From: Okeania sp.
Lineage (GTDB): Bacteria > Cyanobacteriota > Cyanobacteriia > Cyanobacteriales > Microcoleaceae
DNA: 10,174 nt
Direction of reading: 5' to 3'
Assembly (NCBI RefSeq): GCF_035285525.1
Contig: NZ_JAYKGW010000130.1
Span: 1-10,174, forward strand
Shown here: piece by piece, positions 4,038 to 10,174 of the stretch
Layout: each line of letters starts with the position of its first letter
Position numbering within the stretch: the stretch's first letter is position 1
Program-made: the position numbers and the translations under genes
Notes under the pieces: model-generated
Told to the model about the DNA's origin: nothing
Database searches by the model: none
Seen by the model: the letters and a program-made list of their open reading frames with translations, nothing else

Positions 4038-4366
4038 CGTAAAAGTACCTATTTTTTTGCTCTTGTCGTCTCGAAATGGCAGAGTTTTGGCACTAACAAT
4101 CAGAAAATTTGGCCGTAGCAAATAGTCTAAACTCTTCCCTTGCTTCACTAGCAGACTTCCATACCCAAACCCTAAAGTGTGGGAAGTGTGGCGAGGGCAC
4201 ATGGCCCTTCGCCCATACTAAGCGGCTGTGCGTAAGCTCTGATAAAGTTATAGTTATTTTTTCTTAGTTGAGGAGGCGATCGCCTCCATAAACTTTACTT
4301 TTCCTGTCATAAACTGACTCAGAAGGAGAATTGAATAAACTACAGTTCTTGTTATGAAAGGTTTCT

Positions 4367-4787
4367 TTAAAATTCTAGAAACTGACGAGAAGCATGACGA
4401 ATATGCAAAATATAAACAATTGATTCTGATACTGTCAGGACTTACGCAGATGAACTCAGAAACCGGGTTTCTCGTGGACTTCTATTGCTTAAAACAACGA
4501 TTTGTCCTAGAAACCGGGTTCCTCCCGTGTAAGTCCTAACTGTAAAAAGTATCCGATCAGCTCCACATCCTTTCCCATATAAAAGTTGGCAAATTTCTTG
4601 AGAAGAATCAACATTTTCTGGTGCTAGAGAACAACGCTTTGGACTATTACTTCAGGTATCAATCCCATCCATTAAGACCATCAAATCATTTTTCAGCCTG
4701 TTCTTTCGATAGTTGTTCCATCATCCACAAATACACTTCTTCAACTTCTACTGAAGCATCATCTGCTATTTCAATTTTATATTTTAT
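4367..4787 (-). pseudogene. parE: ParE/RelE-family toxin pseudogene, partner of the adjacent antitoxin, disrupted by stops, a frameshift and a MITE
   Basis: Manual minus-strand translation gives (I)KYKIEIADDASVEVEEVYLWMMEQLSKEQAEK*FDGL. After a 1-nt shift it continues MDGIDT*SNSPKRCSLAPENVDSSQEICQLLYGKGCGADRILFTV. Then comes the MITE, followed by SESIVYILHIRHASRQFLEF*. This is the classic ParE pattern (P.RC.LAPE, EI.QLLYGK, RILF, V.ILHIRH..R). Lesions: ATA where ATG is expected (4785-4787), TGA at 4686-4688 and 4652-4654, a frameshift near 4673, and an insertion at 4436-4538. Confidence 0.8.
4436..4538. mobile_element. 103-bp MITE of the AGGACTTACGCA-TIR family inserted into the parE remnant, with a 5-bp target-site duplication
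   Basis: Ends are CAGGACTTACGCA (4436-4448) and GTGTAAGTCCTA (4527-4538). It is flanked by ACTGT at 4431-4435 and 4539-4543. Removing the element plus one ACTGT restores a continuous ParE reading frame. Internal palindromes AGAAACCGGGTTTCT and AGAAACCGGGTTCCT are present. Confidence 0.8.
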
Positions 4788-5061
4788 ACTTTTGTTTAAT
4801 TTTGGTCAATGTTTCTCTAGCTGGAGATGTGCGTCCTTCTTTTACAGCTTTTAGTCCAGTTTCAATGCCTTTAACAGCTTGAATATAATCAAGCATTTCC
4901 AGCATTTTTTGATATGATTCAGGAGTTTGAACTACTGCTTCTGGTTTGCCGTTAACAGTGAGTATCAGTGGGTGTCCAGTTTGTTTAATTCGCTCTAAAT
5001 ATTCAGCAGTATTGCGCTTGAAATTGGTAAGAGAATCAATGTCTTGAGTTATGTCTAGCAT
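4777..5061 (-). CDS. Type II antitoxin, Phd/YefM family (intact)
   Basis: 94-aa ORF. N-terminal Phd/YefM pattern SLTNFKRNTAEYLERIKQTGHPLILTVNGKPEAVVQTPESYQKMLE. Its stop codon overlaps the start region of the downstream ParE-like frame, the usual antitoxin-toxin operon layout. Confidence 0.85.
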   Translation of the reverse strand: MLDITQDIDSLTNFKRNTAEYLERIKQTGHPLILTVNGKPEAVVQTPESYQKMLEMLDYIQAVKGIETGLKAVKEGRTSPARETLTKIKQKYKI

Positions 5062-5246: not shown

Positions 5247-5263
5247 GTTCCTCTTACTCTTCC

Positions 5264-5335
5264 CCACAATCCCCACACTCCTCACACTCCTCACACTCCC
5301 CACACTTCCCACACCTCCTACACCTCCCACACTCC
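5264..5335. repeat. 9-bp tandem repeat, 8 units (consensus CCACACTCC), 73 nt upstream of the gcvP start
   Basis: Units read in register: CCACAATCC CCACACTCC TCACACTCC TCACACTCC CCACACTTC CCACACCTC CTACACCTC CCACACTCC. This array generates the spurious ORF 5051-5425 (SPHSSHSSHSPHFPH...). Confidence 0.9.
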
Positions 5336-5408
5336 TCCTTCCTTGCATTAAGTTATGAATTTTTGTTACAACTTAATGATAAATTGATTTCAAGGAAAAT
5401 ACAGAATA

Positions 5409-8400
5409 GTGGTAGCAATACATAAATCTCATACAAAATCAAGTCACCAAGTACCAGAAGCCAACAAAGGCCAAAAGTCAACGGACTTTTCCCAACGACA
5501 TATTGGCCCTACCTCTGACAAAATTCAACAAATGTTGGCCATCTTAGGTATTTCATCCCTAAATGACCTAATTGACAAAACAGTACCCGAAAAAATTCGA
5601 TACCAGCAACCCCTCAATTTGCCCAAGTCTCTGAGTGAAAGTGATGCTCTTGCGCAAATTAAAGAAATAATCTCCAAAAATCAGGTATTTCGTTCCTTTA
5701 TTGGTATGGGTTATTACGACTGTATTACCCCACCAGTTATCCTCCGCAATATTCTCGAAAATCCTGGTTGGTATACCGCTTATACTCCCTATCAAGCAGA
5801 AATAGCTCAAGGACGAATGGAAGCATTACTGAATTTCCAAACTATGATAACAGACTTAACTGGTTTGGAAATAGCTAACGCTTCCCTGCTTGATGAAGGG
5901 ACAGCAGCAGCAGAAGCAATGAGTATGACTTACGGTTTATGCAAAACTAAAGCAGAAACTTTTTTTGTTGACACTAACTGCCATCCTCAGAATATTGAAG
6001 TTGTCAAAACTCGCGCCCAACCATTGGGAATAGAAGTTATTGTCGGCGACTTCCGGACTTTTACTTTTGACAAACCAATTTTTGGCGCACTCCTCCAATA
6101 TCCTGCTACGGACGGCGCAATATATGACTACCGCGACTTTGTGGCAAGAGTTCACGAAGTCGGAGGTTTAGTAACTGTTGCTGCTGACTTACTCAGTTTA
6201 ACTTTACTAACACCTCCTGGAGAATTTGGTGCTGATGTTGCTGTGGGTAATACTCAACGTTTTGGTGTTTCTCTAGGATACGGCGGTCCCCATGCTGCTT
6301 ACTTTGCGACAAAGGAAGCTTTTAAACGCCAAACTCCAGGACGTATTATTGGGGTTTCTCAAGATGCTAATGGCAACTCAGCCTTACGGTTGGCGTTGCA
6401 AACACGGGAACAACATATTCGTCGGGAGAAGGCAACCAGTAATATTTGTACTGCTCAAGTTTTGCTAGCGGTGATGGCAAGTATGTATGCAGTTTATCAC
6501 GGTCCTGATGGTTTAAAAGAAATTGCCGAAAATATTCATAATTTAACTGTAGAGTTGGCAACAGGTTTAAAACAACTTGGTTATCAAGTTGGTGCAGAAC
6601 CATTTTTTGATACTCTTCGGATAACAGTCGATGCTGACTCTCGTCTGAAAACGGCGAAAGAAGTTATAGATGCTGCTGAAAGTGTAGGGATTAATTTGCG
6701 AACTATTGATGAGCAAACGGTTGGTATTTCTCTAGATGAAACTAAAACTGAGAAAGATGTACAAAGTCTGTGGCAAATTTTTGCTGGTGGAGAAAAGTTG
6801 CCAGATATCGAAAAAAACACTTCCCCCCTTTTAAAGGAAACCCAAAACACTCCTCCTTTTTCCAAGGAAACCCAAAACACTCCTCCTTTTTCCAAGGAAA
6901 CCCAAAACACTCCTCCTTTTTCCAAGGAAACCCAAAACACTCCCCCTTTTTCCAAGGAAACCCAAAACACTCCTCCTTTTTCCAAGGAAACCCAAAACAC
7001 TCCTCCTTTTTCCAAGGAAACCCAAAATACTCCTCCTTTTTCCAAGGAAACCCAAAATACTCCTCCTTTTTCCAAGGAAACCCAAAACACTCCCCCCCTT
7101 TCAAAGGGGGGTAAGGGGGGATTCACCCGCACCAGCAGTTATCTAACTCATCCAGTATTTAACAGTTATCATTCTGAGACCGAACTATTGCGTTACATCC
7201 ATCGTTTACAAGCAAAAGATTTGTCTTTGACAACATCAATGATACCCTTGGGTTCCTGTACAATGAAACTCAATGCAACAGCAGAAATGATACCTGTTAC
7301 CTGGCCGGAATTTGCCCAAATTCATCCTTTTGCTCCCACAGCTCAAACTCAGGGTTATCAAATAATGTTTGAGCAATTAGAGCAATGGTTAGCAGAAATC
7401 ACAGGTTATTCAGCAATTTCTCTGCAACCAAATGCAGGTTCCCAAGGAGAATATACAGGTTTATTAGTGATTCGGGAATATCATGCTCACCGTGGGGAAG
7501 CGCATCGGAATGTTTGTTTAATTCCTGATTCTGCTCACGGAACAAATCCTGCTTCAGCAGTGATGAGTGGTTTAAAAGTTGTCGTTGTTAAATGCGATAA
7601 ACAAGGAAATATAGATATGGCAGATTTGCAGAAAAAGGCAGAAAAGCACAAAGATAATTTGGCTGCCATGATGATTACTTATCCTTCTACTCACGGTGTA
7701 TTTGAGGAAGACATTGTTGACATCTGTGAAATTATCCACGGTTTTGGTGGGCAAGTTTACATGGATGGAGCAAATATGAATGCGCAAGTGGGGTTATGTC
7801 GTCCTGCGGAAATCGGTGCGGATGTTTGTCACTTGAATTTGCATAAAACTTTCTGTATTCCTCACGGTGGTGGCGGTCCGGGAATGGGTCCGATTGGGGT
7901 TAAGTCTCATTTAGCACCGTTTTTACCAGGGCATTCTGTGATTAATATTGGTGGCGAAAATTCTAGTGGAGCGGTATCTGCTGCACCTTGGGGTAGTGCG
8001 AGTATTTTGCCTATTTCTTGGATGTATATTGCCATGATGGGTCCGGATGGTTTGACTGATGCAACTAAGATCGCGATTTTGAATGCTAATTATATTGCGC
8101 AACGGTTGGATAATTATTATCCAGTTTTGTACAAAGGTAAGCATGGATTTATTGCTCACGAGTGCATTTTGGATTTGCGTCCGTTGAAAAAGTCTGCTGG
8201 TATTGAGGTAGATGATATTGCGAAACGGTTGATGGATTATGGTTTTCACGCGCCAACGGTTTCTTGGCCGGTAGCAGGTACTATTATGGTGGAACCGACA
8301 GAAAGTGAGTCTAAAGAGGAGTTAGATCGTTTTTGTGATGCCATGATTTCTATTCGTCAGGAAATAGAGGAAATTGAAACTGGTAAAGCAGATAAACAGG

Positions 8401-8603
8401 ATAATTTGTTGAAAAATGCGCCTCATACTGCTGAGAGTTTGATGGTGGATGAGTGGAAGCATAGTTATTCTCGACAACGTGCTGCTTATCCTGCTCCTTG
8501 GACGCGAGAACATAAATTTTGGCCGACTGTAGGGCGAGTTGATAATGCTTTTGGCGATCGCAACTTTGTCTGTTCTTGTTTGCCGATAGAAGCATATACT
8601 TAG
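5409..8603 (+). CDS. gcvP: Glycine dehydrogenase (aminomethyl-transferring), glycine cleavage system P protein, single-chain form with a repeat insertion
   Basis: 1064-aa ORF with GTG start (AAGGA 9-16 nt upstream). No ATG precedes the conserved N-terminal FSQRHIGP motif. Conserved blocks include [61 protein letters not shown], and the PLP-lysine motif [24 protein letters not shown] (Lys codon 7845-7847). Confidence 0.95.
6811..7110 (+). repeat. In-frame 30-bp tandem repeat inside gcvP: 8 near-identical units (6841-7080) plus degenerate flanking units
   Basis: Unit CCCAAAACACTCCTCCTTTTTCCAAGGAAA was read eight times. The only differences are at 6944, 7028 and 7058. It encodes [10 protein letters not shown] x8, flanked by KNTSPLLKE and [11 protein letters not shown]. 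Confidence 0.95.
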
Positions 8604-8687
8604 GTAGCACAGGCATCTTGCCTGTTGCGTAGCCAAATTTTTAGGGTGCGTTAGACGGCTAAATTTTAGACTCTGAAAGAGATTTAG
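8525..8687 (+). repeat. Direct repeat copy A: the last 79 nt of gcvP plus 84 nt downstream
   Basis: It aligns by eye with 9987-10174. The coding part matches at 73 of 79 positions. The downstream part is collinear, with a few substitutions and one indel of about 24 nt. Confidence 0.9.
8607..8628 (+). terminator. Stem-loop just after the gcvP stop (possible terminator or dispersed-repeat hairpin)
   Basis: GCACAGGCA-TCT-TGCCTGTTGC, a 9-bp stem with one bulge. It is not followed directly by a T run (AAATTTTT begins about 7 nt later). The hairpin shape resembles ACAGCCT-TCT-AGGCTGT in the 46-bp repeat. Confidence 0.3.
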
Positions 8688-8765
8688 GAATTCGTGGTAA
8701 CGCACCGCTTCTGGCATAATGTACGGTTCCCGAAAAATCGGTGCGTTAGCGAAGCGTAACGCACC
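8645..8765. repeat. GGTGCGTTA / TAACGCACC inverted-repeat motifs (small dispersed-repeat type)
   Basis: GGTGCGTTA at 8645-8653 pairs with TAACGCACC at 8698-8706 (44-nt spacer). A tight hairpin GGTGCGTTA-GCGAAGCG-TAACGCACC lies at 8740-8765. The same 9-mer recurs at 9826-9834 and, as GGTGCGTT, in copy B near 10107. Confidence 0.8.
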
Positions 8766-8793
8766 CTACTACTTAATTTACTAAGAACCGGAA

Positions 8794-8822
8794 TTGTTTC
8801 AGCTAAAATATTACGTTATAAT
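8794..8822 (+). promoter_or_regulatory. Candidate sigma70-type promoter for the dioxygenase gene
   Basis: TTGTTT (8794-8799), a 17-bp spacer, then TATAAT (8817-8822), 66 nt upstream of the ATG. AGGA lies 7 nt upstream of the ATG at 8888. Such matches are common by chance in AT-rich DNA. Confidence 0.25.
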
Positions 8823-8887
8823 TGTCATTATTTTGCATAATTCTTATTTAAAATTCCGAAAGTATCAGCAATAATTAGGATATAAAT

Positions 8888-9787
8888 ATGTTGACAAATA
8901 CAAATACAAAGATAGAGATACAACCATTCTCAGAAAATGTAGGTAGAAAAATTATTAATACAGAAAATGCAAGTATTTTAGAAATCAACAAAGAAGAAGT
9001 TATTAATTTGTTTAAATCTTATGGTTTTTTACTTTTTAGAGGTTTTGAAACTGATGTTAATACTTTTGCAGAATTTAGTAATTCACTGAGTAATGGTTTT
9101 ATGGATTACACTGGAGGTGCTATAAATCGGAGAATAATCAATGAGGATGGAACTATATTAACTGTTAATGATTTTAAGGATGAAATGAAACTACATGGAG
9201 AAATGTACTATATAAAAAAACCTCCGCAGATAGTTTGGTTTTTTTGTGCTAATCCACCTTTAAAAGATGGAGAAACAACAATATGTGATGGTGAGCAATT
9301 TTTCCATGAACTTAGTAATTCAATGAAAGATTTATTGAGGAGGAAGAAATTAAAGTTTCCTGGTCGTTTAAAAAAAGAAGATTGGCAAAATAAATACAAA
9401 ACTAATGATTTGAATGTGGTTAAAGAGATATGTGAAAGTCAAGGTAGGGAGGTTCAAATTAACGAAGATGAATCAATTGATTTTAAATTTATCTGTTCGG
9501 CAATACATAAAAGTAGAACTGAACAAAAAGATGTTTTTATTAATAGTTTATTACAGGCAAAAAAGGTAAATCCCAAAAGTGTATGTTTTGATGATGATTC
9601 CGAAATAACTGATGAAATAATGTCAGAATTAAATGAAATTGCTGAAAAAATAACTATAGAAATAAACTGGCAAAAGGGGGATATTTTGATGATTGATAAT
9701 ACGAGAATTATGCACGGTAGAAGAGCTTTTTATGATGACCAACGAGATATTTATGTTCGGTTGTGTTTTCCAGCATTTCCATTTTAA
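8888..9787 (+). CDS. TauD/TfdA-family Fe(II)/2-oxoglutarate-dependent dioxygenase (orphan; substrate unknown)
   Basis: 299-aa ORF. Facial-triad-like H-x-E in MKLHGEMYY. Family block PPQIVWFFCANPPLKDGETTICDG. C-terminal block GDILMIDNTRIMHGRRAF carries the distal His and Arg. Confidence 0.75.
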   Translation: MLTNTNTKIEIQPFSENVGRKIINTENASILEINKEEVINLFKSYGFLLFRGFETDVNTFAEFSNSLSNGFMDYTGGAINRRIINEDGTILTVNDFKDEMKLHGEMYYIKKPPQIVWFFCANPPLKDGETTICDGEQFFHELSNSMKDLLRRKKLKFPGRLKKEDWQNKYKTNDLNVVKEICESQGREVQINEDESIDFKFICSAIHKSRTEQKDVFINSLLQAKKVNPKSVCFDDDSEITDEIMSELNEIAEKITIEINWQKGDILMIDNTRIMHGRRAFYDDQRDIYVRLCFPAFPF

Positions 9788-9848
9788 CCCACATTCCGCA
9801 CTTCAAAAAGATGTCTAACATTATCGGTGCGTTACGCTTACTGAACTG

Positions 9849-9876
9849 CTGATAACTAATAACTGATAACTGAAAA
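9849..9876. repeat. Heptamer tandem repeat (CTGATAA CTAATAA CTGATAA CTGAAAA)
   Basis: Read directly, downstream of the dioxygenase gene. Confidence 0.85.
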
Positions 9877-9926
9877 GGCGATATCGCTCATTTTCATATT
9901 TCCCAGAAAAAAATTTGAGTAAAGGG

Positions 9927-9954
9927 TTGACTTTTAATTTATTTTTGCTATTAT
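9927..9954 (+). promoter_or_regulatory. Candidate promoter reading rightward into the gcvP 3' relic
   Basis: TTGACT (9927-9932), a 16-bp spacer, then TATTAT (9949-9954). This is the best -35 match in the window, but no ORF follows within the window. Confidence 0.25.
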
Positions 9955-9986
9955 TATTTATAATGGAGAAGGTGCGCTCAGAGATA

Positions 9987-10065
9987 GACTGTAGGGAAAG
10001 TTGATAATGCTTTTAGCGATCGTAACTTTGTCTGTTCTTGTTTGCCGATAGAAGCTTATAGTTAG
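9987..10065 (+). pseudogene. gcvP: Relic of the gcvP 3' end (last 25 codons plus stop), detached from any gcvP body
   Basis: It translates as [25 protein letters not shown]. The genuine gcvP C-terminus at 8526-8603 is [25 protein letters not shown]. There are six nucleotide differences in 79 nt. Sequence upstream of 9987 is unrelated to gcvP. Confidence 0.85.
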
Positions 10066-10174
10066 GTAGCACAGGCATCCTGCCTGTTCCCTAGCCAAAA
10101 TTTGTAGGGTGCGTTGGCGCGCTCTTTGCGGACATAAAAAGACGGACTAAATTTAGACTATGAAAGAGATTCAG
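9987..10174 (+). repeat. Direct repeat copy B (partner of 8525-8687), running to the window end
   Basis: See copy A. Copy B carries GGCGCGCTCTTTGCGGACATAAAA after GGGTGCGTT, which copy A lacks. Confidence 0.9.

Follow-up and report, generated by a model that had tools for sequence, protein, structure and literature searches.

A displaced gcvP tail beside a TauD gene in Okeania fits rearrangement in a repeat-rich spacer better than a decayed integrative island

Introduction

How can a decayed integrative island be told from an ordinary duplication when a locus shows an intact gene, a displaced copy of its 3' end and a foreign-looking gene in between? A direct repeat of a gene 3' end around such a gene mimics attL/attR, yet ordinary duplication can yield it, and it is the comparison with empty sites, not the topology of the repeat, that separates the two. 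The question is raised by gcvP in a 10,174-nt stretch of DNA (called the window for simplicity), which is the complete contig of Okeania sp., order Oscillatoriales; a sequence-only reading of the same DNA had placed the host among the Nostocales and had interpreted the locus as an att-like, decayed mini-island around an orphan dioxygenase.

Results

The gcvP tail and its displaced copy

The repeat involves three coding features:
5409..8603, + strand: gcvP (glycine dehydrogenase P-protein), intact (Pfam GDC-P 8e-201, GcvP2_C 8e-63)
8525..8603, + strand: coding part of copy A, the functional gcvP tail (last 79 nt), from the alignment with copy B and relatives
9987..10065, + strand: coding part of copy B, the gcvP tail relic, with no start codon

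Alignment confirmed the claimed duplication of 8525-8687 at 9987-10174 as a direct repeat of two blocks, one of 117 nt with 91% identity (8525-8641 versus 9987-10103) and, after a 24-nt indel, a second of 35 nt with 83% identity (8653-8687 versus 10140-10174). The finer points of the sequence-only reading were reproduced by pairwise alignment as well: 73 of the 79 coding positions are identical, similarity begins abruptly at GACTGT, to the left of which the two copies have nothing in common, and the indel is a 24-nt insertion in copy B relative to copy A. The two copies stay collinear across a hairpin and then a miniature inverted-repeat element (MITE); half of the repeat consists of members of dispersed repeat families, and no identical core exceeds about 35 nt.

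The last 1.4 kb of gcvP are 92-93% identical at the nucleotide level to gcvP of Dapis and Okeania (for the exact protein we found no database record), and copy A differs from relatives by synonymous or conservative changes (CGC, GCA and S>T at the last residue). Copy B is directly preceded by an in-frame TAG at 9985-9987, and its private changes are both non-synonymous, namely R>K and a G>S within the FGDRN motif, which is invariant elsewhere. The relic is a dead, decaying gcvP tail and copy A is the working gcvP end. A scan of the genome collection with a degenerate gcvP-tail pattern gave one match in each of 17 genomes and no second relic-bearing reference genome, indicating that the 79-nt tail is not a dispersed repeat.

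Hairpins and MITEs in the gcvP spacer

Downstream of both gcvP tails the DNA is made up of small repeats:
8604..8635, + strand: hairpin T_A, a GTAG-tagged REP-like palindrome (folding -15.3 kcal/mol, z = -2.5)
8640..8770, + strand: MITE_A, complete with left and right halves, aligned with MITEs downstream of gcvP in L009, L025 and L027
9808..9845, + strand: R', remnant of a MITE right half, aligned with L025 and L027 and common to L007
10066..10097, + strand: hairpin T_B, a copy of T_A (folding -16.2 kcal/mol, z = -3.9)
10103..10174, + strand: MITE_B, a left half with the 24-nt insertion, its right side lost at the contig end

Hairpin T_A lies directly 3' of the gcvP TAG stop. Its family (GTAGCACAGSC..GSCTGT) has five copies in the window against none expected, and the MITE motif four against 0.01 expected. 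MITE_A has the terminal inverted repeats GGGTGCGTTA / TAACGCACCC with TA on both flanks, as seen by eye for most MITE copies, and the family occurs also at unrelated loci (L003-L006, L013, L014 and L017). Nezha-type MITEs are a cyanobacterial repeat family. The elements described here are small and ORF-free, with inverted repeats or a palindrome and many dispersed copies, and they resemble GTAG-tagged REP/MITE families in being short, palindromic, multi-copy and intergenic, in their GTAG or TA-GGG starts and in their position downstream of coding regions. They differ in that they are here only substrate and landmarks of a rearrangement, the gcvP tail itself not being dispersed. GTAG-tagged palindromes have been ascribed to RAYT (Y1) transposases (PMC3733652), and no transposase domain was detected in the ORFs of 50 aa or more of the contig. 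The contig stop at 10174 falls within MITE_B, a dispersed element, which is why the DNA to its right is unassembled. Repeat-dense spacers fill the genomes of the Trichodesmium/Okeania group, and in T. erythraeum coding sequence accounts for only about 60% of the genome (PMC4143802).

The TauD gene derives from an aldolase operon

Between the gcvP copies lies a relocated fragment of about 1 kb:
8771..8887, + strand: left part of the fragment, an aldolase stub followed by the aldolase-TauD intergenic region
8888..9787, + strand: TauD/TfdA-family Fe(II)/2-oxoglutarate dioxygenase, intact (Pfam PF02668 1e-36)

The PF02668 match is full-length (residues 11-288) and, at 127.5 bits, exceeds the Pfam gathering score of 27, while a search of NCBIfam for a more specific function returned sub-threshold matches only and no specific equivalog. 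The protein is 88% identical to that of Okeania SIO2F4. Compared with the TauD gene of an independent metagenome contig (L007), dN/dS is 0.14 at a dS of 0.13, and across comparisons dN/dS ranges from 0.14 to 0.25; judged by these rates, TauD is functional and under purifying selection. The exact protein is recorded on two contigs only, the 10,174-nt contig of the window and a Logan contig of 1,180 nt. The Okeania sp. strain or sample concerned is the one behind WP_324236952.1, and reads of SRR19514071 have identical sequence. In Okeania SIO3I5 a TauD of the same 90% cluster is found on a contig other than that of its gcvP locus.

The gene is not an orphan, as had been proposed, because it belongs to a conserved cyanobacterial family whose usual neighbour is a class II aldolase (Aldolase_II-TauD). 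It is 92% identical at the nucleotide level to the copy in a chromosomal operon of the same genus (L002), positions 8837-8887 show 86-90% identity with the spacer between aldolase and TauD in Okeania SIO2F4, and 8771-8784 preserves some 14 nt of the class II aldolase gene's 3' end; this stub gives the weaker of these alignments, yet its score was reached in 0 of 500 shuffles. On these alignments the fragment derives from an aldolase-TauD operon rather than from the cargo of a mobile element. In none of roughly a dozen related gcvP loci did we find TauD following gcvP: the fragment is the one piece of DNA foreign to this site, and MITE copies bound it at about 8771 and 9807, its ends lying 85-180 nt from the gcvP repeats.

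Empty sites and the island interpretation

The DNA between the TauD fragment and copy B holds two further features:
9846..9875, + strand: CTGATAA-type heptamer repeats (S), at the same place ahead of P in L018, L025, L027 and L028
9876..9986, + strand: promoter module P, with 10/12 consensus matches and a TG in the promoter scan

The predicted elements of P are a -35 box, TTGACT, at 9927-9932 and an extended -10 box, TGcTATTAT, at 9946-9954. In relatives P is the region upstream of a COP23-domain gene, and the arrangement P, leader, COP23 gene is found in L018, L025, L027, L028, L029 and L032. A small conserved peptide starting at ATGG... within P was considered and rejected, as, by eye, one copy of P lacks the ATG and the reading frames that follow are not the same. 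Scanned against Rfam, the window and four loci gave nothing at threshold, so no known RNA family covers P, the leader (Y) or the relic transcript. A structured relic RNA was likewise discarded, since shuffled sequences fold as well as the transcript predicted to start from P (z = +0.27).

The comparison with gcvP loci of relatives, which the sequence-only reading had proposed, shows that alleles lacking both TauD and the relic exist. The empty-site set consists of L018, L025 and L027, the last being one further site from a metagenome scan with the P pattern. In Dapis M229, Okeania SIO1I7 and L027 neither TauD nor the relic is present at the gcvP site, and the order is gcvP, MITEs, CTGATAA repeats, P, leader, COP23 gene. 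Positions 9839-9986 of the window have counterparts 370-630 nt beyond gcvP, with 83% identity across 150 nt in L025 and 82% across 132 nt in L018, and it is precisely at 9986|9987 that homology to the empty sites breaks off; beyond the 3' edge of P follows the relic in the window and in L007, and leader Y in the empty sites. The junction of R' with the heptamer repeats is the very one seen in the empty-site genomes, indicating that R', S and P are orthologous resident DNA. S and P are thus resident, and by alignment the roughly 150 nt to the left of copy B (9839-9986) are DNA of the gcvP site. At COP23 homologue loci in other genomes neither TauD nor the relic was found upstream.

These data bear directly on the interpretation as an island, in which a site-specific element entered the gcvP 3' end with a replacement tail, copies A and B would be attL and attR, and the integrase would be lost or sit further right, within a tandem array. 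Topologically the locus is the same as e14 in icd of E. coli with its displaced 163-bp pseudo-icd' (PMC6379469); TauD is missing at the gcvP site of relatives and is AT-rich relative to its neighbours (28% GC versus 42% for gcvP), and an integrase could still be located right of 10174, where the contig stops. However, 9808-9986 is present in relatives in the same order and orientation, so that the supposed island would be mostly a copy of resident spacer from the DNA adjoining attR, and the foreign DNA (about 8771-9807) is edged by MITE copies and not by the gcvP repeats. The supposed att repeats include dispersed elements and lack a long identical core, and TauD is an unlikely island cargo given its origin in a chromosomal operon of the same genus. 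That no recombinase lies between the repeats had been stated before and holds for every ORF of 50 aa or more across the contig.

Among known systems, e14 and phage 21 in icd share with gcvP the intact gene, the displaced pseudo-3'-end in direct orientation and the inserted DNA in between, and the 163 bp duplicated by e14 (PMC6379469) equal the 163-nt span of copy A. Unlike e14, which has an integrase, a defined att core and solely element DNA between its repeats, the gcvP site has no recombinase on its contig, with resident spacer beside copy B and a foreign gene edged by MITEs. An integron-like array does not describe the locus either: there is no integrase, and no shared attC-like element ends the segments behind P. 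Of the sequence-only interpretation the intact gene, the displaced relic and a gene absent from the relatives' site stood, while the att-site integrative island with resident S-P beside copy B, a MITE-bounded TauD and no recombinase did not. Overall the pattern fits ordinary rearrangement in a repeat-rich spacer better than a decayed integrase-driven island, to which we assign little probability.

The joint between P and the relic

Metagenome contig L007 carries TauD, P and the relic with the join ...ATATA|GACTGTAGGG identical to that of the window and a TauD gene 96% identical to that of the window; the structure is therefore old and no assembly artefact. A chimera at the contig end, in which the gcvP tail of a co-occurring strain was joined to P, would suit a short contig ending in a repeat, but has next to no probability with the P|GACTGTAGGG joint recurring in an independent assembly of another sample in which TauD is 4% diverged. 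The two relics differ by 16%, which on these alignments is close to the neutral divergence of TauD (dS 0.13). The L007 relic is followed by sequence of the GATAAT-repeat type, like L025 and L014, and copies A and B of the window both carry the derived TAG stop and hairpin T, unlike the L007 relic; a single origin of the relics would thus require later gene conversion or allele replacement.

We saw ten copies of P in eight sequences, and the nine that were aligned share the 3' edge ...CAKAKATA. The right breakpoint coincides with this common edge, which hints at some site preference. As a module of some 110 nt that ends sharply on its 3' side and stands in front of unrelated sequences (the COP23 leader, an operon of an 88-aa ORF and HNH, the gcvP relic), P resembles mobile promoters and cases of promoter reuse (PMC3575422), but every P copy seen lies in or beside a COP23 locus, with no sign of genome-wide spread. 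The P edge might be a favoured site of recombination or insertion where unrelated segments are placed behind a portable promoter without an integrase, the GTAG-REP/MITE machinery or an HNH-induced break acting there via the MITE-head look-alike in gcvP (see below). We hold this to be distinctly improbable; if true, the Okeania/Dapis group would have a small promoter-proximal "cassette site" of its own.

The edge also weighs on the proposal that the relic is what is left of a full second gcvP to the right of P, deleted save its last 79 nt. Large tandem duplications with subsequent deletion are common events, and the relic is collinear with gcvP through the downstream repeats. Nevertheless, this takes two events whose breakpoints happen to hit the common 3' edge of P precisely, no gcvP-derived sequence beyond the 79-nt relic was seen right of P, and the joint in L007 is identical. 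We regard such a remnant as very improbable; copy B as a piece of a second full-length gcvP, which would have contradicted the earlier claim of a displaced relic, was not borne out and that claim holds.

A better candidate, though still unlikely, is a short non-tandem insertion, in which "gcvP tail + hairpin T + MITE" (about 250-300 nt) would have moved between P and Y as an extended MITE, the local GTAG-tagged REP/MITE machinery using a pseudo-end in gcvP; the expected right flank would be the end of MITE_B followed by Y and COP23. Positions 8528-8540 of gcvP (TGTAGGGCGAGTT) share 11 of 13 nt with the MITE head TGTAGGGTGCGTT and lie 3 nt in from the edge of the duplication, both the MITE and hairpin T are palindromes of the RAYT-associated kind (PMC3733652), and in L025-type alleles the gcvP-adjacent MITE has no head of its own, for which the head-like gcvP site could substitute. 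Yet the motif resemblance was spotted post hoc, the homology of the copies starts 5 nt upstream of TA|GGG and so off the pseudo-end, the contig has no transposase, and the gcvP tail with its single match per genome is no dispersed element. Transposition from MITE ends as the only mechanism was rejected, the boundary being 5 nt outside the pseudo-end.

Discussion

We favour, with about even confidence, two recombinase-independent rearrangements in the repeat-packed gcvP-COP23 spacer: a relocation of TauD and a duplication of the segment from the gcvP tail to P. The ancestral order would be gcvP, REP/MITE copies, S, P, leader Y and the COP23 gene. In one event, the aldolase-TauD operon fragment (last aldolase codons, spacer and TauD) would have landed between two MITE copies, most likely through homologous recombination between MITE copies with excision and re-insertion of a MITE-bounded segment. 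In the other, a head-to-tail duplication of the unit from 79 nt before the gcvP stop to the 3' edge of P would have created the novel joint 9986|9987 and a functionless second "gcvP tail + hairpin + MITE", after which copy A would have been kept as the gcvP end and copy B left to neutral drift. We place the relocation before the duplication, an order that we infer, as we do the tandem nature of the second event. Had TauD been in place when the unit was duplicated, one would expect a second TauD, unless it was lost afterwards.

A tandem arrangement is consistent with resident P ending at 9986, where gcvP position 8525 follows next, and with the direct, collinear orientation of the copies; it predicts that the remainder of MITE_B and then S, P, Y and COP23 lie right of the contig end. 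A Logan contig of identical sequence breaks within P at 9920, which weakly suggests that the genome has another copy of P, since such a copy would be expected to cause the break. An inversion between GACTGT and ACAGTC was dismissed since the orientation of S-P is unchanged. The continuing tandem array that the sequence-only reading had offered as an alternative comes close to the favoured duplication, minus the site-specific mechanism.

Spontaneous tandem duplication and Campbell-type re-insertion of an excised circle (RecA-dependent or illegitimate) likewise fuse the end of a unit to its start and leave direct, collinear copies, one of them with a decaying gene fragment. The gcvP locus differs in that the latter half of the predicted second unit would lie beyond the contig end and in that the joint has no appreciable microhomology (at most 1 nt), so that the breakpoint mechanism stays unexplained under the duplication model.

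The locus is a clean natural case of a metabolic gene cut from its operon and kept functional between MITE copies. The relic now lies directly behind the conserved strong promoter P, and its position there may have separated P from its COP23 gene. Local duplications are common in the clade: TauD is present in tandem copies in L030, and in L028 and L029 duplicated P modules surround an inserted cassette of the 88-aa ORF and HNH.

The repeated gcvP 3' end

The contig encodes a TPR protein, MazG, an alpha/beta hydrolase, GcvH, GcvP and a TauD/TfdA-family dioxygenase (TauD; 8888..9787, plus strand). A domain search of the whole contig returned no recombinase or transposase, in agreement with the sequence-only reading, which had seen no recombinase between the repeats. 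Dapis and Okeania genomes match the 3' half of gcvP at 92-93% identity, and the affiliation with Nostocales assumed earlier gives way to Oscillatoriales/Microcoleaceae, to which Okeania belongs. The following small features were annotated:

4777-5061, minus strand: Phd/YefM-type antitoxin ORF (Pfam 2e-13), within the 1.6 kb of non-coding DNA that separates gcvH from gcvP
Directly after the gcvP stop: hairpin T, a GTAG-tagged REP-like palindrome (GTAGCACAGGCATCTTGCCTGT), present five times in the window, folds stably in each of the two repeat copies
Next after hairpin T: MITE with inverted arms GGGTGCGTTA / TAACGCACCC

No toxin partner for the antitoxin ORF was recognisable among the neighbouring small ORFs.

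The reported repeat of the gcvP 3' end and its downstream DNA was recovered by a repeat search of the window, which paired 8525-8641 with 9987-10103 (91% over 117 nt) and 8653-8687 with 10140-10174 (83%). In pairwise alignment of copy A (8525-8687) and copy B (9987-10174) similarity starts abruptly at GACTGT and is absent leftward of it, the coding part has 73/79 identities, and a 24-nt insertion sits in copy B. Such a repeat cannot be explained by chance. Copy B preserves the gcvP frame, has no start codon and is directly preceded by an in-frame TAG (9985-9987). The two private changes of copy B are non-synonymous (R>K, and G>S in the otherwise invariant FGDRN) and those of copy A are synonymous or conservative, which fits one working gcvP tail (A) and one pseudogene (B). 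Hairpin T and the MITE are equally placed after both tails and were therefore copied along with the tail; both are of a type catalogued in cyanobacteria, the GTAG-tagged palindromic repeat (PMC3733652), and copies of the MITE family lie downstream of gcvP in several relatives as well as at unrelated loci. The DNA right of 10174 is unassembled because the contig, which the window covers in full, stops inside a repeat element, the MITE of copy B.

Empty sites and the source of TauD

A scan of species-representative genomes for the gcvP tail gave 17 genomes with one match each, and TauD was carried by none of the related gcvP loci. Window 9839-9986, between TauD and copy B, has counterparts in Dapis sp. 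BLCC M229 and Okeania sp. SIO1I7, where the matching DNA lies a few hundred bases beyond gcvP, and it also matches a metagenome contig (L027). In all three the order is gcvP, MITE copies, CTGATAA repeats (S), a promoter-like module (P; 9876..9986 in the window), a conserved leader (Y) and a COP23-domain gene; the comparison of gcvP-downstream synteny suggested earlier thus yielded three empty sites without TauD. A MITE right-half remnant (9808-9845) joins S in the window exactly as in the empty-site genomes, and homology stops precisely at 9986|9987, where the empty sites continue with Y and the window with the gcvP relic.

An island bounded by copies A and B, as the sequence-only reading proposed from the att-like footprint, would comprise the hairpin, MITE, TauD, MITE remnant, S and P. 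All of these parts but TauD correspond, in kind and in order, to what the empty-site genomes have as resident spacer. The direct repeats carrying the gcvP 3' end stand, and the topology is that of e14 in icd with its 163-bp pseudo-icd' (PMC6379469). TauD, the only foreign piece, has its own boundaries at MITE copies (~8771 and ~9807), which leaves 85-180 nt between them and the gcvP repeats, in the order complete MITE, TauD, MITE right-half remnant. Including the missing recombinase, three of the four features tested that define an integrase-driven island were absent.

Nor is TauD an orphan dioxygenase, as had been stated: homologues number hundreds in cyanobacteria, the closest being in Okeania, Microcoleaceae and Hydrocoleum, and both in Okeania SIO2F4 and in a Microcoleaceae MAG the gene is preceded by one for a class II aldolase and one for a transporter or phosphonate-binding protein. 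Window 8837-8887 is the retained aldolase-TauD spacer (86-90% identical to SIO2F4), 8771-8784 probably retains the last few aldolase codons, and operon homology ends at the TauD stop codon. TauD is under purifying selection (dN/dS 0.14 against L007, a metagenome contig, and 0.25 against SIO2F4). Its GC content is 28% vs 42% for gcvP; the SIO2F4 gene, 92% identical, must be AT-rich too. In another MAG (L030 4187-5806) TauD is tandemly duplicated; the unit includes ~90 nt ahead of the start and ~80 nt beyond the stop, and the first copy, called as 244 aa, appears frameshifted.

Proposed relocation and head-to-tail duplication

In the simplest account two ordinary events suffice. A MITE-bounded TauD fragment would have moved out of the aldolase operon, for which homologous recombination between MITE copies is a plausible route, and a unit reaching from 8525 in gcvP to the 3' edge of P would have been duplicated head to tail, with 9986|9987 as the novel joint. 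Right of the contig this predicts the rest of the copy B MITE, followed by S-P-Y-COP23. The joint is without microhomology, and the breakpoint is the one 3' edge common to all ten P copies seen. A Logan contig of identical sequence breaks off within P, an effect that a second P copy would have. Two cases support the idea that duplications of this type are common in the clade: tandem TauD in L030, and duplicated P modules in L028 and L029. The feature is best filed as segmental duplication plus gene relocation in a MITE/REP-rich spacer, and is a worked example of an att-like footprint that needs empty-site comparison before an island is called.

The elements of P are TTGACT, a 16-nt spacer and TGcTATTAT. 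Across ~235 kb of fetched loci P is confined to COP23-related or relic contexts; it is thus the promoter region of COP23 and belongs to the resident DNA, not to the cargo of an island. In one locus (L032) P-Y-COP23 stands behind a different upstream gene. Alongside the duplication and relocation, the locus offers a case of promoter reuse (PMC3575422).

In L028 (3418-4493) and L029 (1817-2835) two P copies bracket an inserted 88-aa ORF and HNH endonuclease gene immediately before COP23, which is a second case of a segment set exactly at the 3' edge of P with P duplicated. In the 70-nt leader Y (L018 949-880 vs L025 2466-2397; also L027 and L032) Okeania SIO1I7 and Dapis M229 show 98.6% identity, far above the level in flanking DNA or gcvP (about 88-90%). 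Y could be functional, as a 5' UTR or small RNA; an Rfam search gave no match to it.

An independent copy of the joint

The 1,382-nt ENA metagenome contig L007 carries a TauD 96% identical to that of the window, in the order TauD, MITE remnant, S, P, gcvP relic, with an identical joint (ATATA|GACTGTAGGG) and different sequence upstream of TauD. Decay of the relic has gone further there (D>N, C>Y, P>R). The relic is drifting, because the 16% difference between the two relics is about what neutral divergence between the lineages gives (TauD dS 0.13). Copies A and B differ by ~9%, an age similar to that of the split from L007. Copies A and B have the derived TAG stop and hairpin T in common, and the L007 relic is followed by GATAAT-repeat type sequence, as after gcvP in Dapis M229 and another fetched locus (L014); a single origin therefore needs later gene conversion or allele replacement.

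Other repeats

Within gcvP, 8528-8540 (TGTAGGGCGAGTT) matches the local MITE-family head (TGTAGGGTGCGTT) at 11/13 positions and sits 3 nt in from the left end of the duplication. The resemblance is a lead for an event mediated by repeat machinery; however, A/B homology begins 5 nt outside the position where a MITE end would start. Downstream of gcvP in L027 (~1345-1590, minus) a MITE is split by a G+C-rich insert of ~250 nt with many self-complementary stretches, which resembles structured RNA or another small element and had no Rfam match at the gathering threshold. Further repeats in the window are a 71-nt unit present three times at the start of the contig (13-233, spaced 65-85 nt), a 66-nt unit with a GTAG hairpin, also present three times (2053-2349), and a 9-nt tandem repeat (TCCCCACAC; 5252-5341) shortly before gcvP, whose inverted counterpart lies at 4175-4195.

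In the linker joining the two halves of GcvP lies a coding 30-nt tandem repeat (6754-7167, ~9-10 copies, a 10-residue unit nine times), owing to which GcvP is 1064 aa long, compared with 984-990 aa for relatives. In several relatives a contig end cuts gcvP off near this position, which suggests that the repeat is variable and assembly-breaking.
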